The position numbers and the translations under genes are program-made. A stretch of DNA of 64,000 bases from Flavobacteriales bacterium (GTDB taxonomy: Bacteria > Bacteroidota > Bacteroidia > UBA10329): positions 43,551-107,550 of the forward strand of contig JAIOYP010000002.1 in the NCBI GenBank assembly GCA_021741155.1. Reading direction: 5' to 3'. Shown here one piece after another: positions 3,816-18,422 of the stretch. The notes under the pieces are model-generated. The model was not told the DNA's origin and searched no databases. It saw only the letters and a list, made by a program, of their open reading frames with translations. The number at the start of each line of letters is the position of its first letter. The first letter of the stretch is position 1.

Positions 3816-4050
3816 CGCAGCACGTGACAAAACGCGACTATAGTCAGCTAGGCACGGTAGTGTTTTGGTCGTGCAGCCTCGAAGGAGGCGCAATCACTCA
3901 ACACGGAGTGCAGCCCCGTGATTCTATGCCCTGCACCAAACCAAGCCCTGAAAGGGCGGAACACATAAACGAGGGGCATCGCCCTTCGCTTATGGCGGTA
4001 TGTGTCGGTAGCCTTGAAGGTGATTGCCTAGCAAATGGCTGGGGGCTTTA

Positions 4051-4198
4051 TTGGCTATAGAAAACAGACCCTTCGTTCCTCAGGGAAGCAAGTAGCGGGC
4101 TCCGCAGCCATCCGTTTGTTTCCCTGAGGAACGAAGGGTCTCTCATTTATTTAGTGAATCACAACTTTTGGGGCTGATTGCCACTTTCTAGGAAATCA
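4051..4198. mobile_element. MITE-like element, copy 1 (148 bp; 19-bp TIRs, internal 21-bp hairpin, imperfect ~10-bp flanking duplication)
   Basis: The TIRs are tgattgcctagcaaatggc and gccactttctaggaaatca. The internal stem is cagacccttcgttcctcaggg ... ccctgaggaacgaagggtctc. The flanks are gccttgaagg and gccttgaaagg. It is about 85-90 % identical to the copy at 8699-8872. Confidence 0.7.
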
Positions 4199-4367
4199 CC
4201 GCCTTGAAAGGGCGATATAGTACTCTGTGGATTTTTGGATGTCGTGTACGTCAATAGCCATCGCGTTCAGATATATACAGTCGTCAACTTTTTGAAAGTT
4301 TGACGGCTGTGAGCATAAACAAGCGGGATTATCCTCTTTTAGCTTCAATTACGACTTAAACCTAGCG

Positions 4368-4472
4368 AGAGGAAGGTTCCTCGGTGCATTGAGAAGGTTC
4401 CTCGGTGGACGGAGAACAATCCTCGGTGCACGGAGAAGGTTCCGTTATGCACGCAGAAGGTTTCTGCACGGA
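4368..4472. repeat. tandem array, 5 x 21 bp (consensus cggagaaggttcctcggtgca), 3' of nadB
   Basis: The units begin at 4368, 4389, 4410, 4431 and 4452, all read directly. Confidence 0.8.
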
Positions 4473-4531
4473 GCATTTCAGCTCTCCCGTGTAGGGTTCA
4501 GAAGGGATTGTTTGAATCTAAAAGCAGACCC

Positions 4532-6055
4532 CTATTCGAGGTCGGAACGGTAAAATCCGCCTACGTTTTTCTTCCTATTTAATGATTGGGTAACGATAAG
4601 CTCTGCCACGATGAGCAGATTTCTGAGCTCCATAAAACCCGTTCCATCCGAAGCGCTGACGGCTCCAAGTACGCTAGACATTCTCTTTATTTCTTGCAGC
4701 GCGTGCTTGAGGCCGAGCTCCGTGCGAATAATGCCCACATGGGTATCCATCAATTCACCCAAATTCTTACGCAATGCGCGCACATCAACCCCTGCGTTAT
4801 GCAGAGATGGAAGCCGCATACTTTCATCGGTAGTGTCGACTACAGCAATATGCTCCGTGGCTAAAAAACAGCGGTGCGCCATTACCAACGCTTCAAGCAG
4901 CGAATTGGATGCCAATCTATTGGCGCCATGCAGCCCCGTGTTGGCACATTCGCCAATGGCATAAAGCCTGCTAATGTTGGTATTTCCATCAAGATCGGTA
5001 TCAATGCCTCCACAACAATAATGAGCCGATGGCCGCACAGGAATGTTGTCTGTTTGAATGGCCAGACCCAACGCTGCACACTTTTGGGAAATAGTAGGAA
5101 AATGCGAACTCAATTCGTTCGGGTCAATCCAGCTGCAATCAAGAAGCACGTGGTCTGATTGTGTTTTCTGCATTTCGTTGAACACGGCTCGCGAAACCAC
5201 ATCACGCGGAGCGAGGTCTGCTTGCTCATCGTAGCTTTTCATGAAATACTCTCCTGCGGTGTTCAACAAGCGCGCACCTGCACCCCGAATGGCTTCAGAA
5301 ATCAAGAACGGCTCTGTCATTTTAGGGTGATAAAGAGCCGTTGGATGAAATTGAATGAACTCCATGTTGCTGATATTCACACCTGCCTGGTGCGCCATGG
5401 CTAGACCATCGCCTGTGGCAATGGATGGGTTGGTGGTAAAACCATAGACCTGCCCACTGCCGCCCGTGGCCAATACCGTTACCGAACTGAGAACCGAATA
5501 ATCGTTTCCGTCAGAATCAATCACCCGTGCGCCTATGCAAACACCATCAGCCATCACGAGGTCATAGGCCATGTGTCCGCTCACAAAATGAACATTCGGC
5601 AGTCCTTGCACCTTTCTCAGCAGTACTTCTGCCAGTTCTAAACCCGTTTGGTCTCCTTTATGAACAACACGGTTTTCGACATGACCGCCCTCACGCCCCA
5701 ACAAGAGTTTGCCATTTTGAGCATCAAACCTCACGCCCCAATCAATTACTTCTTGCACACGTTCGGGGCCTTCGCCAATAATGGTGCGCACCACTTGCTC
5801 ATCGCACAGGCCGTCTCCAGCCTTGAGGGTGTCGTTCACATGCTTTTGAAAGCTGTCTGTTTGCGTATCTGTAACCACGGCAATTCCGCCTTGGGCCATG
5901 CGTGTGTTTGACATGAGTTCTGCACACTTGTTGAGTACAACTACACGTCTTTCTGGAAAAGCTGTTGCCACTTTAATGGCATAGGTCAGCCCAGCCACAC
6001 CAGCGCCAACAACCAAGTAATCTGCCCTCAAGGTTTTGGTTTGTAATCCAAGCAA
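4532..6055 (-). CDS. nadB: L-aspartate oxidase
   Basis: 507 aa. It has an N-terminal FAD-binding motif [12 protein letters not shown] and is of the succinate-DH / fumarate-reductase flavoprotein family, at NadB length. It overlaps nadA by 28 nt in a nadA-nadB operon. Confidence 0.85.
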
Positions 6056-6999
6056 CGTAGCATTGGAATTAAGGCGCGTTTTCTCATTTCCTCATCGAGG
6101 ATAATCTCTGGTTTGTTGTTTTTCAAACAGAGATAGAGCTTTTGCATCGTGTTCATTTTCATGTAGCCACATTCGCTGCACGCGCAGGTATTGTCTGCTA
6201 CAGAAGGTGCAGGAATTAGGGTTTTATGAAGCACGTCCTGCTTCATTCTATGCAGAATTCCCGCTTCGGTGGCCACAATGAATTGGTCGTTCGGGCTGTC
6301 GTTCACATACCGAATCATGGCGGCTGTAGAACCGATAAACGAGGCCGTTTTCAGCACGTGTGCTTCACTTTCTGGATGCGCAATGATGTCGGCATTCGGA
6401 AATTCCTTGTGCAAATCCAACAGTTTATCGATGGAAAATGCTTCGTGCACCATGCAGGCACCTTCCCACAACACCAAATCTCGCCCTGTTTTATCGGCCA
6501 AATAAGCACCCAAGTTCTTGTCGGGTGCAAAAATGATGGGCTGCTCTTTTGGAATGCTATTGATAATCTGCTCGGCATTGGATGACGTGCAGATGATGTC
6601 GCTCATCGCCTTTATTTCGATGGAGCAATTGATGTAGCTGATAACGATATGATTGGGATGTGCATCTAAAAACGCACGGAATTCCGTTGGCGGACAGCTA
6701 TCAGAAAGCGAACATCCAGCCTTCATATCGGGCAACAAAACCGTTTTAGTTGGATTGAGAATCTTGGCAGTTTCGGCCATAAAAAGCACTCCAGCAAATA
6801 CAATTACATCGGCATTTGTGGTGGCGGCCCATCGCGCCAACTCCAAACTATCGCCCACGTAATCGGCAATATCCTGAATGGCGGGCTCCTGATAATAGTG
6901 CGCTAGAATAACCGCATTGCGCTCTTTTCGTAGCGCGTTAATCTTCTCGCTCAGCGAAGTGTTAATCACTGTTTTCTCAATCGTATTCATTGGCCGCAA
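6028..6999 (-). CDS. nadA: quinolinate synthase
   Basis: 323 aa. It is colinear with NadA (AHYYQ near the N-terminus and three conserved Cys-containing segments) and sits directly upstream of nadB. Confidence 0.85.
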
Positions 7000-7120
7000 A
7001 GATTACAACAGATACCACGTGGAAAAATGCCAGTTGTCATTTTTTAGAGATTCTCATTAATGCATATCTGTATGTGTTCCCAAACATCCAGTCCAATTAC
7101 AAATCGGACATGAAAAGGCC

Positions 7121-7204
7121 ACAGATGCACGGATTTCCACTGATTTTCCACAGATAAAAGTAAGTCCATCAGAGAAATCAGTGGAAATCCGTGCATCTGT
7201 GGCT
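7121..7204. terminator. perfect 27-bp-arm inverted repeat between ctaA (3' end) and nadA (5' end)
   Basis: The arms are ccacagatgcacggatttccactgatt ... aatcagtggaaatccgtgcatctgtgg. A related palindrome occurs at 35258-35335. Confidence 0.5.
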
Positions 7205-7270
7205 AAAAACATGTTCTTATTACGTTTCTCAAAACTGACCATTTGGGGAAAGTGGTGGATATGCATTTCC

Positions 7271-8293
7271 TCATTTCTTCATTGGAAGCGCGTGCATCAG
7301 CACCACGCTGCCCGAAAGCAACACCAACGCCCCAAACTGATGAATTACGCCCAATGAAACGGGCACCAGATAAAGCAACGTAAATACACCAAGTGTGAAT
7401 TGTATCAGCACCATTACAACCAAAAGTTGAATGATTTTGTTCTGATAACGGCTCAACGCTTCCTTTCGTGCTGCAAACCACAGATAGCCAACCAATAACA
7501 CCACCACATAGGCAAACGTGCGATGCACGAATTGCACCGAAACAATTTGCGAGAATAGGCTCGAAATACCCCCGCTCTGCAAATCATTCATAACGCTGCT
7601 CGGAATCCAATCGGCACCCATTTTGGGCCAAGATGGGAAGACCAAACCAGCTTTGAGGCCTGCTACAAATGCTCCGAAAATAATCTGTAATGAAACCACC
7701 GCCACCAACACACGTGCAAGAATAGCGGTGCGTTTTGAAGCTAAATCTTGACTCTTGGGCATGTAAATCGAAAGAATGACCCACAGAATGTAGCAGAACG
7801 TGAGGAAGGCCGCACTGAGGTGAATGGCCAGTCGATAATGACTCACACTCGGCCGATCAACCAATCCGCTTTTCACCATAAACCAACCCAAAAAGCCCTG
7901 CAACGCTCCGAGCCCAAACAGCGCAAGGCTCTGAAAAATCAGCTTGCGGTCCATACTTTTTCTCACAAGAAAAATGATGAATGGAATGATGAAGACCATG
8001 CCAATCATCCGACCAATCAAACGGTGCAGATATTCCCAAAAGAAGATGGATTTGAACTCAGAAAGCGTAAAGTGGCTATTCACTTTCTGATATTCTGGAA
8101 ACTGCTGATATTGCTCAAATACTTCATTCCAATCCGCATCATTCAATGGCGGAATGGTTCCCATTATCAGTTTCCATTCGGTGATGGAAAGCCCCGAATG
8201 TGTTAGTCGGGTAATGCCCCCGATAAGCACCATTCCCGCAACCATGATGGCACCTGCGGCCAACCAAAGTATAATCCACTTCCTATCTCTCAC
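7271..8293 (-). CDS. ctaA: heme A synthase (COX15/CtaA family)
   Basis: 340-aa polytopic membrane protein with His-containing TM segments (HRLIGRMIG, HQFGALVLL), colinear with COX15/CtaA. Confidence 0.75.
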   Translation of the reverse strand: MRDRKWIILWLAAGAIMVAGMVLIGGITRLTHSGLSITEWKLIMGTIPPLNDADWNEVFEQYQQFPEYQKVNSHFTLSEFKSIFFWEYLHRLIGRMIGMVFIIPFIIFLVRKSMDRKLIFQSLALFGLGALQGFLGWFMVKSGLVDRPSVSHYRLAIHLSAAFLTFCYILWVILSIYMPKSQDLASKRTAILARVLVAVVSLQIIFGAFVAGLKAGLVFPSWPKMGADWIPSSVMNDLQSGGISSLFSQIVSVQFVHRTFAYVVVLLVGYLWFAARKEALSRYQNKIIQLLVVMVLIQFTLGVFTLLYLVPVSLGVIHQFGALVLLSGSVVLMHALPMKK

Positions 8294-8395
8294 AGGCGCA
8301 AAAGTAGGACTATACTGGATGATGATGAAATATGACGCGAATCATCCTTAATTGGTCGAAAAAATGACGAATATAGCACGACAAAAAATCACGAA

Positions 8396-8695
8396 ATGAA
8401 AAGTCTCAGTAATACCTTTTTAGTTGCTCTCGGTCTTCTGTTAACCGTGGCATTTAGCAGCTGCGAAAAGTGCTACGATTGCACCTTGAAATGCGGCACC
8501 TGCACCAACGGAACGGTAACAGTGGCTGGATGCCAAGGCGACTCCATCCTTCAGGGTCAATCAGTTGACGCTTGGAAGGCATACTTTGAGTCACAAGGAT
8601 ATTCTTGTGCTTACAACAACACAACGCAAGAAGCCTGCGGCAAGGAAAACAAAGACGAGCTTTCGGATTTGCACTACGAATGCCTGACCAACTAA
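8396..8695 (+). CDS. small Cys-rich lipoprotein, hypothetical
   Basis: 99 aa with a lipobox LTVAFSSC and then about ten Cys residues. Its stop codon lies inside the target-site duplication of MITE copy 2. Confidence 0.5.
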   Translation: MKSLSNTFLVALGLLLTVAFSSCEKCYDCTLKCGTCTNGTVTVAGCQGDSILQGQSVDAWKAYFESQGYSCAYNNTTQEACGKENKDELSDLHYECLTN

Positions 8696-8698
8696 GGT

Positions 8699-8872
8699 GA
8701 ATTGCCTAGCAAATGGCTCAGTGCCTAATTGCTATAGAAAACAGACCCTTCGTTCCTCAGGGAAACAAACGGATATGGAAGAGCCAGCTAGTTGCTTCCC
8801 TGAGGAACGAAGGGTCTCACATCTGTTCCGTGAGCAATACTTTGAGGCTGATTGCCACTTTCTAGGCAATTC
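8699..8872. mobile_element. MITE-like element, copy 2 (174 bp) with a perfect 10-bp TSD, caactaaggt
   Basis: The TIRs are gaattgcctagcaaatggc (8699-8717) and gccactttctaggcaattc (8854-8872). The internal 21-bp hairpin is the same as in copy 1. The direct repeat caactaaggt lies at 8689-8698 and again at 8873-8882. Confidence 0.8.
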
Positions 8873-8979
8873 CAACTAAGGTCAGAGTTTGTCATAATTA
8901 TGATATACGTCATAAACTGGCGTATGCGCTGCGAGTAATTTCAAAGGCTCAATCTGTTTCTCACACAATTTCAAGAACG

Positions 8980-9876
8980 GTGCAGCCTCTGATATTTGAC
9001 ATACAGCGTTTTTCCATTCACGATGGAGCAGGAATTCGTAGTGTTGTGTTCTTTAAAGGATGCAACCTCAATTGTCCGTGGTGTCAAAATCCCGAGTCAA
9101 TGGATCATCGGCCTGAGATTGCCTTTTATGCTGAAAAATGCACGAAGAATGCCGATTGCGTTGAGGTTTGTCCTGTAAATGCCATCATCATTGGTTCCAA
9201 AACACACATAGACCGCGAACTGTGCAATCGCTGCGGCAAATGCACCGAAGCGTGTGTTACTGGTGCGTTAAAAAAGATTGGAAACGTCTATTCGGTTGAT
9301 GAAGTGATGCACCAATTGCTCAAAGACAAACCTTACTACGAAACATCGGGCGGTGGTGTAACTTTTTCGGGCGGAGAACCGAGCCTGCATGCAGACTTCA
9401 TTCTTGAAGTGCTGAAAGAATGCAAGAAGCATGATATTCACACGAATATCGAAACCAACGGTTACTTCAACTGGGAAAAATTCAAACCACTTCTCCCGTA
9501 TTTAGATCAGATATACTTCGATTTGAAAATTGTTGATCAGAAACGGAACAAAGATCTGCTAGGTGGCGATAGCCAACGCATTCTATCCAACATGGATCTT
9601 TTAATTGAGCACAACGCTCCAGTCGAATTCCGTATTCCGCTTATTCCAGGTCATACCACAGATGATGAGAACCTGAAATCGTTGGTCAGGGTGCTGAAGG
9701 AGAAAGGAATTTCAAAGATTCATCTTTTGCCATACCACAGCATGGGCGAAGCAAAAGCAGAACGCATTTGCAGTCCGCTCATTGATTTGAACCAAAAACC
9801 ATTCGATACAGAACAATTGAATGGCTTTCAACACATGTTTGAAAGCGAACACATTGAAACAGAACTTTATAGATAG
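8980..9876 (+). CDS. glycyl-radical-enzyme activating enzyme (radical SAM, with two extra ferredoxin-like clusters)
   Basis: It has an N-terminal CNLNCPWC (C-x3-C-x2-C) motif and the typical IHDGAGIRSVVFFKGC segment. Two further Cys clusters follow (CTKNADCVEVCP and CNRCGKCTEAC), as in non-PFL GRE activases. There is a 6-nt gap to the GRE gene. The start codon is probably GTG. Confidence 0.85.
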   Translation: MQPLIFDIQRFSIHDGAGIRSVVFFKGCNLNCPWCQNPESMDHRPEIAFYAEKCTKNADCVEVCPVNAIIIGSKTHIDRELCNRCGKCTEACVTGALKKIGNVYSVDEVMHQLLKDKPYYETSGGGVTFSGGEPSLHADFILEVLKECKKHDIHTNIETNGYFNWEKFKPLLPYLDQIYFDLKIVDQKRNKDLLGGDSQRILSNMDLLIEHNAPVEFRIPLIPGHTTDDENLKSLVRVLKEKGISKIHLLPYHSMGEAKAERICSPLIDLNQKPFDTEQLNGFQHMFESEHIETELYR

Positions 9877-9882
9877 AACGTC

Positions 9883-12267
9883 ATGGAAACTACCGCAAAG
9901 GCCACTGCCACCATCATCAGCCCACGGCTCAATCGTCTAAAGGAGAAGGTGCTTAATTATCCACCATCCATCTGTCCCGAAAGAGCGCTTCTAGTAACCA
10001 AGTATTTTAAGCAGAAGGAGAACGGTAAGAAGCCGATGGTCATACAAAAGGCCGAAGCATTGGCCTACATTCTTGACCAAAAAACGGTACGCATTTACGA
10101 GGATGAGTTAATTGTGGGAACAACCACGTCTAAGCGTGTAGCTGGGCCGATTTTCCCTGAATTGCACGGCCTACCCGTAATGGAAGACTTGTTCAGCTTT
10201 TCGGACAGAAAGATTAATCCACTAAAAATTCACAAGCACGAAAAGACCAAATTACTGACCGAAGTTGTTCCTTTCTGGCTCACGCGATTTTTGGGCTACA
10301 AGGCCATGAACGGGTTGGATCTAATCAAGTTTGTGACCGACCAACTTAATCCGAAATTCTATCTCATCAACGAAACAGGCGGTATCGGTCACCTCATTCC
10401 AGATCATGAAAGAGTGCTGGAACGCGGATTGGATGGCATCAAAGAAGACATTAGAGTTAAGCTGAATGAAGCAGGATTAAGCGAATCTGCACGGAACCAA
10501 TATGAAGCCATGATTATTTCGTGTGATGGCATCATCAATTACGCTCACAAGTACGCAGAAAAGGCCGAGGGACTGGCGAAAACGGAAAATGACCCAGGCC
10601 GAAAAGCCGAATTGTTGACAATTGCAAAAAACCTAAAACACGCTCCGCAAAAACCTGCCGAGACATTTCATCAAGCAATACAGGTGGTGTGGCTCATGCA
10701 TACGGCCGTTTTTATTGAGGGATTGGATAACGGAATCAGCTTTGGAAGAATGGATCAATACCTGTATCCATTTTACAGAAGAGATCTGATAAATGGTACG
10801 ATTACAAAGGACAAAGCAAAAGAACTGATTGGCTGTCTGGGCATCAAAAGCTCAGAGATTATTCCCGTTTTCAGTTCCAAGATAAGCGAATGCCATGGAG
10901 GTTTCCTGAGTGGACAAGCCATCACTTTGGCCGGAACGGATGAGGAAGGAAACGACCTTACCAACGAACTGACTTTTATGATGCTCGAACTGATGGATGA
11001 GGTTCGTCTGCGCCAACCAAATTACCATGCACGAATTCATGATGGTTCGCCCAAGCCTTACATCGACAAGATTATGTCCAACCTTGTAAAAGGCGTTAAT
11101 TCTCCCGCGCTTTACAACGACAAGGTGATTATCAGCTCACTTAAAAAAGCTGGTTATTCAGATGCTGATTCAAACGCCTACGCCACCTTGGGTTGTGTGG
11201 AGTTGCTTTCGGCAGGAAAAACGTTTGGCTCTACCGATGCGGCTTTGGTCAACATTCCTATTTGTCTAGAAATGGCCCTCAACGAAGGCCGACTCTTCGG
11301 GGATCTGATGCGAAAAGGAACAGAAACGAAGCCTGTTGATGATTTCAAGAATATTGATGAGGTGAAAGCCGCATTCAAAACACAGCTTCAGTTCGTCATT
11401 GACCGTTTGGTGAAAGTGCTGGAGCCGATTGAAATTGCTAATCGTGATTTTCATCCAACGCCTCTCACATCTGTGGTAACACAAGGCTGTATTGAAAGCG
11501 GAAAAGACGTTACTTCTGGTGGCGCCATCTATAATTTCAGTGGTGTTCAAGGAGTAGGCGTTACCGATGTTGGAGATAGTTTGTATGCCATCGACCAATT
11601 GGTTTTCCAAAAGAAAAAAATCAAACTTTCTGAATTGGTCAACGCACTAAAAACCAATTTCAAAGGGAAAGAGAAACTCAGAATGGAACTTCATAATCTC
11701 CCGAAATTCGGGAACGATATGGAAGATGTGGATGCCTTGAGCCGTTGGGTAACGGACACGTATTACGATTCATTCAACGGAAAAATGAACACCCGTGGCG
11801 GCAAGTTTGTGGCAGGATTCTATTCCACCACAACCCATTACAGTTTCGGAAAAATGACTGGCGCGTTGCCAAATGGAAGAGAAAAAGGAGAGCCGTTCAG
11901 CTCTGGCATTGCACCCATGAACGGGGCAGATGTGCTTGGCCCAACCGCCATGTTCAATTCCATTACTGCTCTCGATTTTGAACGAGCGCACAATGGAGTA
12001 AACGTAAACGCCAAGTTTGATACCGCCACGCTGAAAGGAGAACATGGAAAAATGATTTTGGAAAGCCTATTGCTTACCTATTTCAAGAAAGGTGGCATGC
12101 AAGTGCAATTAAATGTATTGGATACGGAAATGCTGAAAGACGCGAAAATTCATCCCGAAAAATATCCCAATCTACTTGTTCGGGTTTCGGGTTATTCGGC
12201 CTATTTCAATGACCTTTCTCCAGCCATGAAAGATGAGATTATTAACCGAAGTTGTTTGAATACTTAA
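9883..12267 (+). CDS. glycyl radical enzyme, C-x-E (dehydratase/eliminase) class of the PFL2/GDH/HypD/CutC type; substrate unknown
   Basis: 794 aa. The C-terminal glycyl radical fingerprint LLVRVSGYSAYFNDL is present. The active-site loop TLGCVELL has a single Cys with Glu at +2, whereas PFL has two adjacent Cys. The length matches glycerol dehydratase and HypD. Confidence 0.85.
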   Translation: METTAKATATIISPRLNRLKEKVLNYPPSICPERALLVTKYFKQKENGKKPMVIQKAEALAYILDQKTVRIYEDELIVGTTTSKRVAGPIFPELHGLPVMEDLFSFSDRKINPLKIHKHEKTKLLTEVVPFWLTRFLGYKAMNGLDLIKFVTDQLNPKFYLINETGGIGHLIPDHERVLERGLDGIKEDIRVKLNEAGLSESARNQYEAMIISCDGIINYAHKYAEKAEGLAKTENDPGRKAELLTIAKNLKHAPQKPAETFHQAIQVVWLMHTAVFIEGLDNGISFGRMDQYLYPFYRRDLINGTITKDKAKELIGCLGIKSSEIIPVFSSKISECHGGFLSGQAITLAGTDEEGNDLTNELTFMMLELMDEVRLRQPNYHARIHDGSPKPYIDKIMSNLVKGVNSPALYNDKVIISSLKKAGYSDADSNAYATLGCVELLSAGKTFGSTDAALVNIPICLEMALNEGRLFGDLMRKGTETKPVDDFKNIDEVKAAFKTQLQFVIDRLVKVLEPIEIANRDFHPTPLTSVVTQGCIESGKDVTSGGAIYNFSGVQGVGVTDVGDSLYAIDQLVFQKKKIKLSELVNALKTNFKGKEKLRMELHNLPKFGNDMEDVDALSRWVTDTYYDSFNGKMNTRGGKFVAGFYSTTTHYSFGKMTGALPNGREKGEPFSSGIAPMNGADVLGPTAMFNSITALDFERAHNGVNVNAKFDTATLKGEHGKMILESLLLTYFKKGGMQVQLNVLDTEMLKDAKIHPEKYPNLLVRVSGYSAYFNDLSPAMKDEIINRSCLNT

Positions 12268-12273
12268 GATAAT

Positions 12274-12726
12274 ATGGAAAAGACCGATACTGCAATTTGG
12301 GATTTTATTGCCAACACAGATGTGTTCACGTTGGCCACCTGCCACCGTGGAAAACCATATTGCTGCTCTTGCTTTTACACCTTCGATCGTGAAGGGAAGC
12401 GCCTGATATTCAAATCTGAAACAGGAACACGCCACGTGACCGAACTATTGCTTCAACCACAGATTGCAGGCAGCATTCTTCCCAAAAGTCTTGCAATTGG
12501 AAAAGTGAAAGGCATTCAGTTTACTGGTCAAGCACTTCCGTTGCAGGAAACAGAAGATTATGATAGAACGAAGAAACTCTATTACAAGCAATTTCCTATT
12601 GCCCTAACCATGGGCGGACAGCTTTGGGCAGTAGAGTTGGAGACAATTAAAATGACCGATCATACGCTCGGATTCGGCAATAAACTGCGCTGGGAAAGGG
12701 CTCAATTGAGCACAAAAATGAACTAA
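12274..12726 (+). CDS. pyridoxamine-5'-phosphate-oxidase-like (split-barrel, FMN-binding) protein
   Basis: 150 aa with the pattern DVFTLATCHRGKPYCCSCFYTFD, typical of the PNPOx/general-stress-protein-26 fold. It starts 7 nt after the GRE stop, which suggests an operon. Confidence 0.5.
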   Translation: MEKTDTAIWDFIANTDVFTLATCHRGKPYCCSCFYTFDREGKRLIFKSETGTRHVTELLLQPQIAGSILPKSLAIGKVKGIQFTGQALPLQETEDYDRTKKLYYKQFPIALTMGGQLWAVELETIKMTDHTLGFGNKLRWERAQLSTKMN

Positions 12727-13745
12727 AACGGGCTTGAAAGCGAAGTATCGTTCACAAACTCCCAATCTGTTAGTGTTTTAAGGAAGGCCACCAGATTCTG
12801 CTTCTCCTCTTCGGTAAGTTGAAGTCCGTATTCCTTGCCTGGTTTGGTCATTATGGGGTCAATAGTCATGGAGCGTTTTACCTGACTATTATAGTGTTCT
12901 ACAACTTCTTCGAGCGTAACGAACCGCCCATCGTGCATGTAAGGTGAGGTCAACTCCACATTTCGTAAGGTGGGCGTTTTGAATTTTAAACGGTCGTACG
13001 GACTTCCGCTAATGTAACTGCGATCCTTAACGGTCGGGTCATAAATACTGTCGAGCCCAATATTGTGAAACTCATTATTCGTCATCAATGGAATTCCATG
13101 GCAATGGAAACAATCTCCTTTTTCGGTAAAAAAAGTAGTCATACCATTCAACTCACTGTCCGTCAATTGTTCTTCCCCTTTTAGATAACTGTCAAATTTG
13201 CTATTGCTAGACTTTAAACGTCTGAACCATTGGGCCAATGCTTTTGCCACCAACTCATCGGTAATCTCGCAAGAGCCAAAGGCCTTTCGGAACAATTCGG
13301 GATAAACAGCATCCTCTTTTAGAAGATTAAAATCCACTTCAAAAAAGTCGTTTACTTCAAACAGCATCACGTCTTCCAAGATTCCTTCCAGCTTTCCATT
13401 CCACAAAAAGTTACGACTCCACGCAAGGTTTACATGCGGGAGCACAGACGAACCGCTTGCTGTTGATGGAACCGAAAAAGAATTACTCTGAAAATGACAA
13501 GAGGAGCATGAGCGCCCTTCACGCGGGCCGCCTGTAGAAAGCAATGGATCGTAATACAATCTCCTGCCAAGTTGAACTCCTTCTTCTGTTAGCGGATTAT
13601 CAGAAGGAACTTCTAGAATGGGGAAATAATCAGGAAATTGTAGTTGGTAAGGATGTGTATTTGCCTCACATTCGTCCACTTCCTCTTTACAGGATGAGGC
13701 AGAAATCGCCAAAAGCACCAATAAGAACCAAACCGAGCGTGTCAT
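12723..13745 (-). CDS. di-heme cytochrome c peroxidase / MauG-family protein (MbnH-like)
   Basis: Two CxxCH motifs (CSSCH and CFHCH), a lipoprotein signal LAISASSC and CCP/MauG-like length. Confidence 0.8.
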   Translation of the reverse strand: MTRSVWFLLVLLAISASSCKEEVDECEANTHPYQLQFPDYFPILEVPSDNPLTEEGVQLGRRLYYDPLLSTGGPREGRSCSSCHFQSNSFSVPSTASGSSVLPHVNLAWSRNFLWNGKLEGILEDVMLFEVNDFFEVDFNLLKEDAVYPELFRKAFGSCEITDELVAKALAQWFRRLKSSNSKFDSYLKGEEQLTDSELNGMTTFFTEKGDCFHCHGIPLMTNNEFHNIGLDSIYDPTVKDRSYISGSPYDRLKFKTPTLRNVELTSPYMHDGRFVTLEEVVEHYNSQVKRSMTIDPIMTKPGKEYGLQLTEEEKQNLVAFLKTLTDWEFVNDTSLSSPF

Positions 13746-14455
13746 GGCGTTTGTTCTAAAGTGAAGGCGTTGTTTATATTGGCGCTTATCTCCAACATGG
13801 CTGGCATGATACCCATGGTATAATTGCTGCTGTCCATGTCGAATGTGTTGGGACCTGTCATGATTTCGTTCAGGTTGAATCCAATGGTCATGCTGCCATC
13901 TTCCGAAATATCAAAAGGGGTTGAGATTGAAACATCGGCCAAACATTCGTTATTCCCCACATGAATGGCATAGCCGTTTACACCTTGATTTGAATTAAAA
14001 TAACCTTCAAATTTCATAAAGTGATACCCTCCGCCCATCTGTTCGGGCCAAACCATACCCGTATTGTATGATGTATTGGGAAGATTACCGTAAACGTTCT
14101 GACTCTGTGGTATTCCGAAGTTAAAACGCAATTCCTTAAAACTACCGACAGGAACTTTGGGTAGATTCAAAATGGTTCCTTCCCGAGCATCAATGAAATG
14201 AGCATCGCCATCAGCCGTAACTACAGAATTGTCTGCCTTTACAAATCGAAAATTGGATAGATAGTACCGCAACTTATTCACACTGTAGGGATTGCCAGCG
14301 GCATTTTGATAGATGATGGTATCGAGCATCAGCTCATCTCCATCAACATGGTAGTGTGGGGTAATGGTAAGGTTGTAGGTCAGCGCTTCCTCTTTGCAGC
14401 TATTCAAAAGAACAGTGTTCAAGGCCAAAAGAAGTACAAATGCAAGTTTTCTCAT
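13742..14455 (-). CDS. lipoprotein partner of the di-heme peroxidase (possible MbnP-family protein)
   Basis: The signal and lipobox are MRKLAFVLLLALNTVLLNSC. It overlaps the peroxidase gene start by 4 nt. The gene order (partner first, then peroxidase) and the size resemble mbnP-mbnH pairs. The family assignment is by context, not by motif. Confidence 0.45.
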   Translation of the reverse strand: MRKLAFVLLLALNTVLLNSCKEEALTYNLTITPHYHVDGDELMLDTIIYQNAAGNPYSVNKLRYYLSNFRFVKADNSVVTADGDAHFIDAREGTILNLPKVPVGSFKELRFNFGIPQSQNVYGNLPNTSYNTGMVWPEQMGGGYHFMKFEGYFNSNQGVNGYAIHVGNNECLADVSISTPFDISEDGSMTIGFNLNEIMTGPNTFDMDSSNYTMGIMPAMLEISANINNAFTLEQTP

Positions 14456-14496
14456 CCCAATTGAATTTGAGTTCAATTACGGATGAAAGCAAACTG

Positions 14497-14534
14497 CCGA
14501 TCATGACTTACATCATGGTCGGCAGTTTATTTTC
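14497..14534. terminator. 16-bp-stem hairpin downstream of nrdJ
   Basis: The arms are aaactgccgatcatga-ctta-catcatggtcggcagttt, with one mismatch. Confidence 0.5.
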
Positions 14535-14551
14535 AAATATGAATTATATGC

Positions 14552-17134
14552 TTATCCGCACTTGCTATGCCCGCAGCTTTTGCACTTGAGGCAACCTTCT
14601 TCATAAATCAATCCATCAGGATCGTTACATGATGGGCATTTGTGATCAGCTTTTGTTCCGTTAGGAATGTAACGCTTCAGTGTTCGTTCAACCCCGTTTT
14701 TCCATGTGTTGATGTTCTCATCAAACAGGTTCAATCTCGACACAAGATTAACCACATACGGCAACGGCATTCCATGACGCAATACACCAGAAATTAGCTT
14801 CGCATAATTCCAGAATTCCTTATCGAAACTGCGCGAAAGTCCTTCGATAGTTACACGATAGCCGTCCTTATCCACATACTGGAAATCGTAACGGGCATTG
14901 CCATCATCATCTCGGTCTTTGATGATCCAACCTTTTTCTGCCCACGTTGGAAGATGAAACGCTTCTTCGGTTTTTCCAGTGAAAACCTCATAAGGTTTGC
15001 CATCCAGCAATCCAACTACTGCAATCCACTTTTCCTTCTCATTTTGGAATCGGACAATCTCAGCTTCTAGTTTCTTTGGTCTTCTTGGCGGACGCGTTTC
15101 CAAAATGGTTTCCAGCGTTGCCGCATCCTTCTTGTCATCATTTGATATGAGCACTCCCGAACGTGAACCATCTCGATAAACCGTAATTCCCTTCACGCCT
15201 TGCTGCCACGCTTTCAAATAAATCTCGCCTACCTTTTCCTGACTTACATCTTCAGGCAAATTGATGGTAGAACTGATGGAATGGGTCACATACTTCTGAA
15301 CCATCGCTTGCAATTTTACGCGCTGCATCCAGTCAATTTCAGGAGCGGTTGAACCGATGTACGGATTGCCGGCATCATTTTTCTTTCCGTTCACGGTCAT
15401 CCACGTTTTTAGCTTCGGATGATACACGGTGAACTCCTCCCAACGATCGCCCATTTCATCAACAAATGAAACATTGGCTTCCGGTGTGCTGTGCATGATT
15501 TTTCTTCTTCTCGTATAACTGGTGAGAAAAACAGGTTCTATACCTGAAGATGATTGCGCCAACATGCTGAGCGTTCCAGTAGGAGCTACTGTACTGATGG
15601 AAATATTTCTTCGTCCATGTTGCATCATGCGCTCATACACATTCGGAAAATCCTGCTTCAGCATTTGCACGAACTCCGAAGTGTTCTCAATTTCTGGATT
15701 GAAATCTTTGAATTTTCCTCGTTCGATGGCCATATCAATAGAACACTGGAACTCAGCATCGCACTTTGTACGCATCATTTTCTCCATTTCGACTAGGGCT
15801 TCATCGCTATCGAATTTTAACCCGAGTGCAGCAGCAGTATCGGCCAAGGCTGTAAATCCAAGACCAGTTCTTCGACCATTCTTTCCAGCATTGTAGAGTA
15901 ACTCCCACGTTTCAACCTCCACCTGCTTCACTTTGTCTGGTTCAGGGTCACTTTTAACCTTAGCCAAAATTCGGTCGATGGCTTCCAGTTCAAGATCCAC
16001 CAAATCATCCATCAAACGTTGCGACTCATAAGTCGTTTTCCAGAATTTCTTGTGGTTGAAACTTGCTTGTGGCGTAAATGGATTTTCTACAAATGAATAC
16101 AGATTGATGGCAATCAGTCGGCAACTATCTCCGCCTTGCATGGCAATTTCTGAGCACGGATTGGTGCTTGTATTCTTAAATCCAGGATAAACCGATGATG
16201 TTGAATAATAATGCTGACGATCCCAGAAAATAAGACCGGGTTCCGCTGTATTGTGCGCGCACTGAATAATGGTGTTCCACAATTCGCGTGCATTCACCTT
16301 CTTCGTGATTTTTGGCTCTTTACTCTCAACTGGCCAACGATGCATAAAATCTTTGTTGTCTCGAACGGCTTTCATGAATTCGTCCGAAATACGAACCGAG
16401 ATATTGGCACCTGTTACCTTCGAAAGGTCTTGCTTGCTGGTAACGAAATCCTCCACATCGGGATGAGCAATGTCCATGGTAATCATCAAGGCACCGCGTC
16501 TTCCATTCTGAGAAACTTCGCGCGTTGTATTTGAGAAACGCTCCATAAATGAAACCGCGCCAGACGTGCTACCAGCTGCATTATTTACCCGCAATCCAGC
16601 AGGGCGAATGGTAGATAAATCAATACCTACACCGCAACGCCTTTTAAAGAGTTGCACCAATTGCTGGTCGGTGTACATAATGCCACCGTAACTATCGTGA
16701 ATTTCAGGAATAACTACGCAGTTGCTCAACGAAGCAAGCACATGCGTATTACCTAGAGAAGACATCACACTTCCTTGTGGAATGACATATTTGAAATCTC
16801 GAAAAAGATTGTAAATCTCATCTTCCGTCATTGGATGCCGCTGCTGACCATATTCAGAAAGCAGTGCTGTTTTTGCGCCTAAATCAGCAGATGAACCATT
16901 TTTTTGTTCGATGCGAGCAAACTCGCGAGCCATACGCTTGTGCATATCGTCTGGCGAGGTTTCCAAGTACTTGCCGTCCGTATCGGTCATGGCATACTTG
17001 TTAATCCAAGTGGTGGCCGCCAACTCGTCTCCATCAAAGTAGCTTAAACACTTCTTCAATACTTCCTGATAAGGGAAGGTTGGTGTTCTTGTTAATGTGT
17101 CAATTGTGGGTTTCGGTGTCTTCTTGTTGGCCAT
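14552..17134 (-). CDS. nrdJ: ribonucleoside-diphosphate reductase, probably adenosylcobalamin-dependent class II (NrdJ type)
   Basis: 860 aa. The RNR active-site motif STNPCSEI is present. There is a C-terminal four-Cys tail (CPSCNDPDGLIYEEGCLKCKSC). No adjacent nrdB small-subunit gene is present. Confidence 0.65.
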   Translation of the reverse strand: MANKKTPKPTIDTLTRTPTFPYQEVLKKCLSYFDGDELAATTWINKYAMTDTDGKYLETSPDDMHKRMAREFARIEQKNGSSADLGAKTALLSEYGQQRHPMTEDEIYNLFRDFKYVIPQGSVMSSLGNTHVLASLSNCVVIPEIHDSYGGIMYTDQQLVQLFKRRCGVGIDLSTIRPAGLRVNNAAGSTSGAVSFMERFSNTTREVSQNGRRGALMITMDIAHPDVEDFVTSKQDLSKVTGANISVRISDEFMKAVRDNKDFMHRWPVESKEPKITKKVNARELWNTIIQCAHNTAEPGLIFWDRQHYYSTSSVYPGFKNTSTNPCSEIAMQGGDSCRLIAINLYSFVENPFTPQASFNHKKFWKTTYESQRLMDDLVDLELEAIDRILAKVKSDPEPDKVKQVEVETWELLYNAGKNGRRTGLGFTALADTAAALGLKFDSDEALVEMEKMMRTKCDAEFQCSIDMAIERGKFKDFNPEIENTSEFVQMLKQDFPNVYERMMQHGRRNISISTVAPTGTLSMLAQSSSGIEPVFLTSYTRRRKIMHSTPEANVSFVDEMGDRWEEFTVYHPKLKTWMTVNGKKNDAGNPYIGSTAPEIDWMQRVKLQAMVQKYVTHSISSTINLPEDVSQEKVGEIYLKAWQQGVKGITVYRDGSRSGVLISNDDKKDAATLETILETRPPRRPKKLEAEIVRFQNEKEKWIAVVGLLDGKPYEVFTGKTEEAFHLPTWAEKGWIIKDRDDDGNARYDFQYVDKDGYRVTIEGLSRSFDKEFWNYAKLISGVLRHGMPLPYVVNLVSRLNLFDENINTWKNGVERTLKRYIPNGTKADHKCPSCNDPDGLIYEEGCLKCKSCGHSKCG

Positions 17135-17489
17135 GGGTTACTCTTTTATTAGTTGATGGCCATGAAAGTATTAACCAAAAAACACCATCCGAAGCAAGTC
17201 GAAAAACGTTACTAAGAATCTGCTTGTTAATAAGTCTAATTGACTGAAAATCAGCAGTGGTTCTTCAATTCTGATATAAATCATAATCGTAAAAGTTGGA
17301 GTAATTAAAAATTGTGCTTATTGGGTAAGCAATGTTCTAACCTCGATAACCCGCGCACTGTTGTCAACTCCCAAGCCTTCTTGCCGATGCTGCAAAAAAA
17401 ACACGCTTATTCTACAACTGGGTCTTGTTTATTCATCCGCCCATATTCTCAAACTTTGAATTTCTCTGAGATGATTGAAAGGTAGAAAT

Positions 17490-18068
17490 TCAATCTCCGC
17501 GTTTGTAGCCGATTTTCTGCCTGTTCTGTTGGTCAAGTTCTTGCTGTTTAATCGCTTCAAACTGTTTGAGGTATTCAAATATGATCTGAAGTTGGTCATC
17601 GTGGCCTCTGACGCTACTCCTTATCTCTTCCAACTGTTTGAAGAACTCTTGATGACTGGAAATCAGCTGTCTCATCTTGGTGAAGAGACGCATAATCTGG
17701 ATGTTTACTTGGATTGCGGTCGGACTGTTCAATATGCTTGACAGCATGGCAACTCCCTGTTCCGTAAAGCAGAATGGAGCGTATCGTAACCCTTTCCTAT
17801 CTTCTTTGGACATCACAGATTGTGATCTCCAAGATTGGAATTCCTCTTTATCCATCTCGAACATGAAGTCTTCTGGAAATCTGTCCAGATTACGCCTAAC
17901 TGCTTGTTTGAGGACTCTTGTTTCTACGCCATACAAGGCTGCCAAATCCCTATCCAGCATCACTTTTCCCCCACAGACCTCACGTATTTTGCTCATCAAT
18001 ACTTCGTGCGGTATTGCAATCGTCAGATTCTTTTTGGCCATGTCTAAAAAGGTTGAGCGGTCTTTCAC
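17490..18068 (-). CDS. ORF6N-domain protein
   Basis: It contains the characteristic KVMLDRDLAALYGVETRVLKQAVRRNLDRFPEDFMFE ... RYAPFCFTEQGVAMLSSILNS ... VNIQIMR segments. Confidence 0.8.
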   Translation of the reverse strand: MKDRSTFLDMAKKNLTIAIPHEVLMSKIREVCGGKVMLDRDLAALYGVETRVLKQAVRRNLDRFPEDFMFEMDKEEFQSWRSQSVMSKEDRKGLRYAPFCFTEQGVAMLSSILNSPTAIQVNIQIMRLFTKMRQLISSHQEFFKQLEEIRSSVRGHDDQLQIIFEYLKQFEAIKQQELDQQNRQKIGYKRGD

Positions 18069-18317
18069 AAAACTAAGATTTCATGGGTTTTTCGTGTTTG
18101 GTGCAATGGCTCATTCTCAGGATACTCAACTTTTCAATGAGTTCTTATTCTCCGTCCCAGACTTCCATCTTCTATCAAATTAAAATAACGGAGCCTTTAC
18201 GTAACGGCCTCGTTCTGCACGAAACTTCGGAATACGGCTGTTGGATTCCGTCCCTCGGCCATTGGCGTTCGCCATGCGGTTAGTGGCTTTCGGCTAAAGG
18301 TTAAAGGCTTCCGCAGA

Positions 18318-18422
18318 GCGGAAAACGGTAGCCGTGGTGCGGAAACCAGTTGCGATGTAACGGAAATTGATTGCCGTGTAACGAGCGATGACCACGGAGC
18401 GGCTGACAACCGCATTACCCTA
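18318..18422. repeat. tandem array, about 5 x 21 bp (gcggaaaNcNgtNgccgtgta), immediately 3' of the adhesin gene
   Basis: The units start at 18318, 18339, 18360, 18381 and 18402. The theme (cggaa ... cgtgca) resembles the 4368-4472 array. Confidence 0.7.

Follow-up and report, generated by a model that had tools for sequence, protein, structure and literature searches.

A probable two-gene activase and glycyl radical enzyme cassette of an uncharacterised clade beside a resident yhbP-like gene in a Flavobacteriales bacterium

Glycyl radical enzymes (GREs) carry out chemically difficult anaerobic reactions. To our knowledge, each newly assigned GRE clade has revealed a new pathway: choline to trimethylamine (TMA), hydroxyproline, sulfonates and anhydrohexitols. 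A 2026 review of the superfamily lists as characterised enzymes of the C-x-E type glycerol dehydratase (GD), propanediol dehydratase (PD), HpfG, HypD, HpyG, HpzG, CutC, IslA/IseG, HpsG, HplG, YbiW and PflD. According to the same review, AfPFL2 of Archaeoglobus fulgidus is still a GRE of unknown function, and whole clades are without validation. In this study, we analysed a GRE and its activating enzyme (activase) encoded in a stretch of 64,000 nt from a Flavobacteriales bacterium (assembly GCA_021741155.1, contig JAIOYP010000002.1, positions 43,551 to 107,550 of the forward strand). The whole stretch is called the window, and positions are counted from its first letter. No enzyme of the clade of this GRE is listed in the review, and our literature search found no paper characterising the clade. 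Unassigned GRE clades are numerous; the present one stands out as large and compact, with a distinctive invariant pocket, as the sister of AfPFL2 and by its presence in aerobic-type Bacteroidota.

An earlier reading of the same DNA, referred to here as the original prediction, had described a three-gene operon at this locus. Three open reading frames (ORFs) on the same strand were indeed found in the ORF list at the expected coordinates, and 6 nt separate each stop from the next start.

8980..9876, + strand: GRE activating enzyme (radical S-adenosylmethionine, SAM), 298 aa (TIGR02494, PF04055, motif)
9883..12267, + strand: GRE, 794 aa, uncharacterised clade related to AfPFL2 (PF02901, PF01228, TIGR01774)
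12274..12726, + strand: YhbP/UPF0306-like split-barrel (PNPOx-fold) protein, 150 aa (NF002900, PF01243, AlphaFold model)

The best explanation of this arrangement, to which we give a probability of about 70%, is a two-gene cassette of activase and GRE from an uncharacterised clade, with eliminase-type chemistry, in a dispensable slot beside a resident yhbP-like gene. The cassette is intact, and its GRE, which is predicted to work like a GRE eliminase, belongs to no characterised GRE family.

The GRE matched PF02901 with 622.7 bits and PF01228 with 106.2 bits. As shown by translation, the glycyl radical motif RVSGY lies at 12181-12195, with the codon of Gly770 at 12190-12192, and the Cys loop GCVE, which holds Cys438 and Glu440, lies at 11191-11202; both motifs had been read correctly before. 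The codons of other residues discussed below are at 10390-10392 (His170), 10726-10734 (Asp282-Asn283-Gly284) and 11236-11238 (Asp452). Cys438 aligns with Cys433 of GD and is invariant across the family, and R767, S769, G770 and Y771 are invariant in 28 homologues. The only GRE model passed was TIGR01774, a broad PFL2/glycerol-dehydratase subfamily (711.7 bits; cutoff 678.2). For every NCBIfam equivalog model, the score was at or below about half of the cutoff; the models for indoleacetate decarboxylase and HPAD gave 362 bits (cutoff 1100) and 264 bits (cutoff 1150), respectively. A PDB search with the GRE returned AfPFL2 (2F3O) as the best match with 545 bits and GD as the second with 510 bits, while IslA, HpsG, TutD and MasD gave 357, 347, 214 and 211 bits. 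Reference sequences were taken from printed PDB alignments, PGAP-annotated plasmid genes and E. coli K-12. Identity to the GRE was 37.5% for AfPFL2 (763 residues), 36.4% for GD, 36.0% for 9RCO, 33.7% for PflD, 33.3% for HypD, 32.5% for CutC and 32.4% for YbiW. In a neighbour-joining (NJ) tree, the query family and a Moraxellaceae plasmid GRE formed one clade, which was sister to AfPFL2 and outside GD, PflD, YbiW, HypD and CutC; GD grouped with 9RCO, apart from this clade. The model scores, the PDB matches, the tree and the pocket alignment described below all place the GRE outside the characterised clades, with different substrate-binding residues, as had been proposed.

Several known GRE functions were considered and rejected. 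Pyruvate formate-lyase (PFL) was rejected on the single Cys in GCVE, where there is no Cys-Cys pair, and on the score for the PFL equivalog TIGR01255 (148.8 bits; cutoff 994). The HypD equivalog NF043068 gave 533.1 bits (cutoff 1100), and HypD Asp278 and Phe340 are replaced by Asn283 and Gly344. CutC was rejected on its equivalog TIGR04394 (503.7 bits; cutoff 1050) and on the position of CutC Asp216, which is His170 in the query. The sulfonate GREs (HpfG, HpsG, IslA/IseG) were judged by PDB bits and by the models NF048009/NF048011, for which both equivalog scores were below the cutoff of 1000 (HpfG 543.9 bits, HpsG 487.4 bits). For the PflD/YbiW isomerases, the PflD equivalog PRK09983 gave 508.9 bits (cutoff 1109), and the locus census described below showed no phosphotransferase system (PTS) or aldolase neighbours. 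X-succinate synthases (BSS/MAS) were rejected on the TutD and MasD scores and on the neighbour census, which showed no recurrent small ORF beside the GRE. The C-x-E motif of the original prediction is present. However, it is insufficient for calling a 1,2-eliminase, since the isomerases HplG, YbiW and PflD carry the same motif (2026 review).

The activase matched TIGR02494 with 327.5 bits (cutoff 174; no NCBIfam equivalog cutoff was reached) and PF04055 of Pfam with 78.9 bits. Its radical-SAM motif CX3CX2C, checked by translation, is CNLNCPWC at 9061-9084. The ferredoxin-like insert at 9139-9255 contains seven Cys residues (C54, C60, C64, C82, C85, C88 and C92), and these seven and the three radical-SAM Cys residues are invariant or near-invariant in 53 family activases. 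Motifs and profile matches agree that a C-x-E GRE stands beside a non-PFL-type activase. The radical-SAM CxxxCxxC of the upstream gene was thus described correctly, but the "two ferredoxin clusters" attributed to it were not, as the insert has seven Cys residues and not the canonical two sets of four.

We compared the cassette with the closest described systems. AfPFL2 shares with the query GRE the C-x-E Cys loop, a His at GD position 164, and an SxDAAN segment with the equivalent of GD Asp447. Their motifs differ, with QENYEQAIS, FSGQATNQA, YPMTTN and RVAGW in AfPFL2 against IEGLDNGIS, HGGFLSGQA, YSTTTH and RVSGY in the query, and AfPFL2 is archaeal and hyperthermophilic, so that it need not share the function of the query. 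GD of Clostridium butyricum (1R8W/1R9D) resembles the query in fold, in an adjacent activase with a ferredoxin-like insert and in the equivalents of its catalytic residues. It differs in three contact residues, which are replaced in the query, in an overall identity of 36.4%, and in operon context, as no dha-type operon surrounds the query. We take the order in the C. butyricum operon to be dhaB1 before dhaB2, the reverse of the activase-first order found here. The chemistry of GD has been proposed to be a direct elimination (2026 review). PflD and YbiW of E. coli anhydroglycolysis and HypD have the C-x-E loop and a His at GD position 164, and PflD also has an Asp at GD position 447. The ybiY-ybiW and Cetobacterium hypD loci are activase-first, as is the query. 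These enzymes are 32-34% identical to the query, in which Asn283 stands at HypD Asp278 and which has no PTS, aldolase or proC neighbours. Within the plasmid collection, the annotated sequence nearest to the query (43-44% identity) was the plasmid GRE of Moraxella osloensis and Acinetobacter towneri (WP_227522716, WP_317027854), an uncharacterised enzyme of aerobic-type hosts that falls in the query clade by NJ and shares STDAAN, YS.T.H and RVSGY. However, the GRE comes first in its gene order, and it has ETLGET and LGGLTSWEV where the query has EGLDNG and HGGFLSGQA. On these plasmids, the GRE and activase genes lie inside a Tn3-family transposon (L094:7965-11340, pYHS2; L095, p4SAAt401; comparison loci are cited by such L labels). 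The same transposon carries a gene for a 6-bladed beta-propeller protein and a gene of the carboxymuconolactone-decarboxylase family.

The functional unit was examined in 80 fetched species-representative loci, in which ORFs were called and clustered and a Pfam census was made of 249 flanking proteins, two genes per side. The activase was directly upstream of the GRE on the same strand in 63 of the 80 loci; no upstream activase was found in 9 of the 69 loci that have at least 1.2 kb of upstream sequence. Apart from the activase, no gene family among the clustered flanking ORFs occurred in more than 9 loci. In the census, 8 loci had a FadR-type GntR regulator directly upstream of the activase in divergent orientation, 7 had acyl-CoA dehydrogenase and 4 had enoyl-CoA hydratase; acyl-CoA ligase, patatin and zinc-dependent alcohol dehydrogenase (Zn-ADH) each occurred 2-4 times. 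No microcompartment genes and no consistent aldehyde-dehydrogenase partner were present in these 80 loci, and no pathway from which a substrate could be derived emerged from them, beyond a weak lipid/acyl-CoA theme. These results indicate that the functional unit is the activase plus the GRE, two genes and not three. The activase-first order, which had been called atypical, is a trait of the family, because 63 of the 80 loci share it; it is also the order of the E. coli and Cetobacterium loci above.

The distribution of the family was scanned with two family-specific peptide patterns in one genome per GTDB species (185,579 species representatives). We found 232 relatives, in Bacteroidota, Desulfobacterota and Spirochaetota. 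The carriers include Desulfatibacillum alkenivorans DSM 16219, Desulfosudis oleivorans, Smithella, Syntrophus, Leptospirales, Flavobacteriales and Chitinophagales. Database homologues split into a Bacteroidota group at 60-88% identity and, separated from it by a gap, a large group from Desulfobacterota, Chloroflexi and Spirochaetota at ~50%. Invariance was assessed with 28 sequences at 49-88% identity drawn from both groups. The invariant pocket columns are N163, E164, H170, E279, L281, D282, N283, H338, G339, G340, G344, Q345, C438, V439, E440, S450, T451, D452, A453, A454, Y647, S648, T650, H652, S769, G770 and Y771. In the alignment, Cys433, Glu435, His164, Asp447 and Tyr640 of GD are all conserved in the query. 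His170 and Asp452, which align with GD His164 and Asp447, are invariant in the family, and PflD has both too. GD His281, Ser282 and Tyr339 are replaced by Asn283, Gly284 and Gly344, and these replacements are invariant across the family. A two-residue deletion relative to GD puts the invariant Glu164 beside the His loop. The mapping to GD agrees with published correspondences, as CutC Asp216 and HypD Asp278 fall in the expected columns.

Since the catalytic Cys, Glu, His and Asp are kept and the glycerol-binding residues are replaced, our best guess is that the GRE may be a new C-O-cleaving eliminase with a GD-like radical elimination. From the alignment, the pocket would be more open than that of GD, with Gly344 for Tyr339 and Gly284 for Ser282. 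It is predicted to be lined by the polar or acidic residues Glu164, Asp282, Asn283, His338, Gln345, Thr650 and His652, with no basic side chain among the mapped residues. With a roomier, polar and acidic pocket of this kind, the most likely substrate would be a hydroxylated small molecule that is neutral or cationic and exceeds glycerol in size. The clade as a whole is large and probably isofunctional, with a pocket unlike that of every characterised GRE.

The reaction can be outlined from the chemistry of the GRE family. The activase (8980-9876) would cleave SAM reductively and take a hydrogen from Gly770 of the GRE. The glycyl radical would then generate a thiyl radical on Cys438, which would abstract a hydrogen from a hydroxyl-bearing carbon of the substrate. 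Glu440 would deprotonate that hydroxyl, while His170 and Asp452 would aid the exit of the beta leaving group (OH, possibly OR or an amine). The product radical would finally regain a hydrogen from Cys438.

Several observations weigh against the preferred explanation. The assignment of pocket residues comes from aligning the sequence to GD and not from a structure of the query protein. PflD, an ether-cleaving isomerase, has a His and an Asp at the same positions, so elimination and isomerisation cannot be separated by these residues. Dehydrogenase and microcompartment genes are usual in diol-dehydratase operons. The locus census showed no consistent aldehyde or alcohol dehydrogenase or microcompartment gene beside the cassette, and the product of a dehydratase would therefore need to enter general metabolism. 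The recurrent neighbours outside Bacteroidota, namely the FadR-type regulators (8 loci), acyl-CoA dehydrogenases (7) and enoyl-CoA hydratases (4), hint at lipid or acyl-CoA metabolism, which fits poorly with a very polar pocket. The Crp/Fnr-like regulator discussed below is without the cysteine cluster of FNR and so does not demonstrate anaerobic induction.

The third ORF matched PF01243 with 31.2 bits and the YhbP model NF002900 with 121.2 bits, below the equivalog cutoff of 176; the latter match covers profile positions 6-145 of 150. It is therefore related to YhbP but is not an equivalog. E. coli YhbP (UPF0306) is accordingly the closest family by NCBIfam model, with a match of near full length. 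The AlphaFold model of the protein had a pLDDT of 91.0 and a pTM of 0.85. A Foldseek search gave 175 PDB matches at E <= 0.001, and the 50 listed were all split-barrel proteins (PNPOx-like, HugZ/HutZ-type and related). The best were the HugZ-like heme-binding proteins At3g03890 and MSMEG_6519, with TM scores of 0.77-0.80. The predicted fold is the same, but the identity is ~15%, and for that reason these matches do not assign a cofactor (heme, flavin mononucleotide (FMN) or other). A sequence search of the YhbP-like protein against the PDB gave nothing meaningful, and in the literature we found no paper linking YhbP to GREs and none on the function of YhbP. We take E. coli yhbP to lie near ubiU/ubiV, and the YhbP-like family may be linked to tetrapyrrole or low-oxygen functions.

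Of the 80 species-representative loci, 3 had a YhbP-like gene at a distance of up to 8 kb from the GRE, all of them from close Flavobacteriales relatives, and the other 77 lacked it. The pairing was also seen in metagenomic contigs of the same lineage (L088, L089 and L091-L093). The gene occurs without a GRE in L090, L087 and L082-L086. In L090, the order is NadB-NadA-CtaA-lyase-small lipoprotein-YhbP-MbnH-MbnP, with no activase and no GRE, and the YhbP-like gene follows the lipoprotein gene by 47 nt. In L087, a transglutaminase-like gene fills the slot between the lipoprotein and YhbP-like genes. The YhbP-like gene is directly upstream of an NrdJ-like ribonucleotide reductase (RNR) in L082 (L082:5001-8349), beside an Rrf2 regulator and a class II RNR in L084-L086 (L084:2281-5432), and after PFOR, DHODH, U32 peptidase and ferredoxin genes in L083; across these Bacteroidota loci and L087, it adjoins RNR, NadAB or U32-peptidase genes without a GRE. 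Because the gene is kept without the GRE, and the GRE family occurs overwhelmingly without the gene, genomic context identifies it as a resident neighbour and not as a component dedicated to the GRE. In the window, the 6-nt gap after the GRE makes co-transcription with the cassette probable, as an effect of its position.

In the Flavobacteriales lineage, the slot of the cassette is bounded by a small lipoprotein gene on the 5' side and by the resident yhbP-like gene on the other. The cassette is dispensable, because it is absent from L090, a closely related and fully syntenic contig. The identities of L090 to the window are 81% for CtaA, 84% for NadA and 68% for YhbP, and those of the GRE-bearing L005 are 75%, 74% and 54%. 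As the flanks of L090 match the window as well as or better than those of L005, loss of the cassette in L090 is the simpler reading. Insertion of the cassette beside a pre-existing yhbP was considered and set aside on the same flank identities; the gene and the cassette are separable either way.

An unlikely alternative is a three-component system, in which the PNPOx/YhbP-like protein would be a dedicated accessory that donates electrons to the activase through flavin or heme, or acts on the product. An activase requires a donor of single electrons, and binding of FMN or heme is possible for small split-barrel proteins. In the window, L088, L005 and L091-L093, a distance of 6-10 nt separates the GRE stop from the YhbP-like start, and in L003 there are 76 nt between the end of the GRE match and the start of the YhbP-like tblastn match; L003 and L091 keep the pairing with different flanks. 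However, the gene is absent within 8 kb in 77 of the 80 loci, including most Bacteroidota loci, and in L002 another gene stands between it and the GRE. It stays in place in L090, whose flanks are as close to the window as those of L005, and its homologues elsewhere adjoin the other genes named above. Its identity between the window and L088 (81%) is also lower than that of the activase, GRE and NrdJ (95-99%). The three-gene operon of the original prediction is therefore not upheld as a functional unit. The correction from three genes to two matters, as experiments should use the two.

Two further readings concern the GRE itself. It is quite unlikely that the enzyme is a divergent orthologue of a characterised eliminase such as B12-independent glycerol or propanediol dehydratase. 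Such a reading draws on the conserved catalytic Cys, Glu, His and Asp of GD, the rank of GD in the PDB search, the NCBI protein name 'formate C-acetyltransferase/glycerol dehydratase family', and the first proposal for AfPFL2 in the literature, which was glycerol dehydratase. It is opposed by the family-wide loss of the GD contacts His281, Ser282 and Tyr339 to Asn, Gly and Gly, by an identity to GD of 36%, by the grouping of GD with 9RCO in the tree, and by the census, in which 1,3-propanediol dehydrogenase, aldehyde dehydrogenase or microcompartment genes were not consistently nearby. An enzyme that activates hydrocarbons or lipids, either like an alkylsuccinate synthase or acting on a fatty-acyl substrate, is very unlikely. 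The sister lineage AfPFL2 has been suggested in the literature to be an alkylsuccinate synthase, and members of the family are frequent in degraders of alkanes and fatty acids (Desulfatibacillum alkenivorans, Desulfosudis oleivorans, Smithella, Syntrophus). The divergent FadR-type regulator in 8 loci and the acyl-CoA dehydrogenases, enoyl-CoA hydratases, acyl-CoA ligases and patatin point the same way, yet this association covers about a quarter of the loci only, in genomes rich in beta-oxidation paralogues. The family is also present in freshwater Flavobacteriales and Chitinophagales without hydrocarbon context. The enzyme scores far lower against the X-succinate synthases TutD (214 bits) and MasD (211 bits) than against GD and AfPFL2 (510-545 bits), no small ORF that could encode an accessory subunit recurs beside the GRE, and the predicted pocket is polar and acidic. 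A two-gene cassette with an eliminase-type GRE of its own clade is thus preferred. Such a clade is attractive for study, being large, with an invariant pocket signature, a minimal two-gene unit and expressible mesophilic members. If the GRE does act on a new substrate, solving this clade could settle the long-debated function of its sister AfPFL2.

The surroundings of the cassette were then annotated, and the earlier calls for CtaA, NrdJ and the insertion upstream proved correct in Pfam/NCBIfam scans and in the comparison of loci.

7271-8293, - strand: CtaA (heme A synthase), Pfam/NCBIfam
8396..8695, + strand: small Cys-rich predicted lipoprotein, 99 aa (ORF; orthologues in relatives)
8699..8872, no strand: insertion resembling a miniature inverted-repeat transposable element (MITE), between the small lipoprotein gene and the cassette operator (terminal inverted repeats, target-site duplication, empty site in L088)
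8900..8913, no strand: Crp/Fnr-type palindrome ATGAT-ATAC-GTCAT, candidate cassette operator (pattern count, comparison of loci)
12723-14476, - strand: MbnH/MbnP-like pair, Pfam/NCBIfam
14552-17134, - strand: class II B12 RNR NrdJ, Pfam/NCBIfam

NadA and NadB are encoded further upstream in the window (Pfam/NCBIfam). An Rfam scan of 4000-19000 showed no riboswitch and no other RNA family. The presence of a GRE in Flavobacteriales that encode heme A synthase suggests a hidden anoxic or micro-oxic metabolism in presumed aerobes.

The box at 8900-8913 starts 80 nt and ends 66 nt upstream of the GTG start of the activase at 8980. The window contains 4 matches to the pattern ATGAYNNNNRTCAT, where 0.42 would be expected, and a count of 4 was reached in 0 of 100 shuffles. 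Three of the four sites lie in local promoters, at 8332-8345 (the ctaA/lipoprotein intergenic region), 8900-8913 and 14503-14516 (upstream of mbnP), and a looser box lies about 140 nt upstream of nrdJ, at about 17274-17285. Sites homologous to the 8900-8913 box were found in L088, L089 and L091, and boxes at homologous positions in L088, L089, L005, L002, L090 and L004. Within -250 to +60 of the called activase start, TGAY-N4-RTCA was found in 7 of 14 non-syntenic Bacteroidota loci, with matches at -42 to -119, and in 1 of 37 loci from other phyla; the background expectation is 0.034 per region. In relatives, as in the window, the pattern (T)ATGAY-N4-RTCAT(A) precedes four adjacent units, namely the divergent ctaA/lipoprotein pair, activase-GRE, mbnP-mbnH and nrdJ. 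These observations suggest an undescribed Flavobacteriales regulon, and co-regulation of the cassette and its neighbours through the predicted Crp/Fnr-type operator is plausible.

No Crp/Fnr regulator gene was found in the window, either among the 20 ORFs scanned or by tblastn. In L005, the gene directly upstream of nrdJ (L005:15532-16218) encodes a Crp/Fnr-family protein of 228 aa, with a box between the two genes (L005:15518-15533), and a homologue of this protein lies beside nadA in L087. The recognition helix of the L005 regulator has E-x3-R spacing, which we take to be typical of FNR. Canonical oxygen sensing by FNR is not supported, as this candidate regulator has no N-terminal Cys cluster. 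The "anaerobic module" of the original prediction thus gains indirect support from the predicted operator shared by the cassette, mbnP and nrdJ, but not from the candidate regulator, which is without the iron-sulfur cysteines of FNR. In the window, a 192-aa ORF at 17490-18068 fills the position upstream of nrdJ where L005 encodes its regulator, and L088 has at the matching position an ORF6N-domain gene followed by toxin-antitoxin genes (HepT/MNT). These arrangements suggest a mobile-element replacement upstream of nrdJ.

With odds slightly better than even, we favour a broader reading that joins these points. The GRE would act on a substrate of no characterised GRE, as a new C-O or C-N cleaving eliminase or isomerase of a polar hydroxylated metabolite. 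Its clade would include members from the anaerobic Desulfobacterota and Spirochaetota as well as from Bacteroidota of aerobic type, and possibly from plasmids of the obligately aerobic Moraxellaceae, and in Bacteroidota the cassette would belong to a Crp/Fnr-type regulon with the B12 RNR, the MbnP/MbnH-like genes and heme A synthase.

The small lipoprotein (8396-8695) had no Pfam or NCBIfam match. Its orthologues lie upstream of activase-GRE in L002, L004, L005 and L088, and in L090, where there is no GRE, directly upstream of the yhbP-like gene. The 99-aa Cys-rich protein is kept upstream of the slot across the lineage (L087:2250-2525; L090:6654-6953; L004:6692-6979).

The MITE-like element at 8699-8872 (~174 bp) is bounded by terminal inverted repeats of 19 nt, carries a 26-nt hairpin internally, and is flanked at 8688-8698 and 8872-8882 by a target-site duplication of 11 bp, CCAACTAAGGT. 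Alignment with L088 shows an exact insertion of 184 bp immediately after the lipoprotein stop codon. The repeats, the duplication and the empty site in L088 confirm the MITE reported upstream of the cassette. The mechanical ORF list has a 60-aa ORF across the element at 8697-8879. A 34-mer search of the window allowing 3 mismatches showed one copy of the element only.

Between the window and the near-identical L088, identity was 81% for YhbP and 85% for MbnH, compared to 95-99% for the activase, GRE, NrdJ, NadA and CtaA. This hints at relaxed constraint or local recombination 3' of the cassette. MbnH-like di-heme peroxidase genes adjoin the cassette in six Bacteroidota loci in varied arrangements (window 12723-14476; L006:3645-6981; L009:3133-6497; L078:1105-4499), accompanied by MbnP, or by cytochrome c and a NosD-like beta-helix protein; the recurrence may reflect either a link in function or regulation in common. 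In L078, also from Bacteroidota, a second, unrelated GRE of 874 aa with GCVE and RVSGY (L078:10493-13117) lies directly 3' of the family GRE and is followed by a gene of the NAD-dependent epimerase/dehydratase family; this second GRE is 30-36% identical to everything compared.

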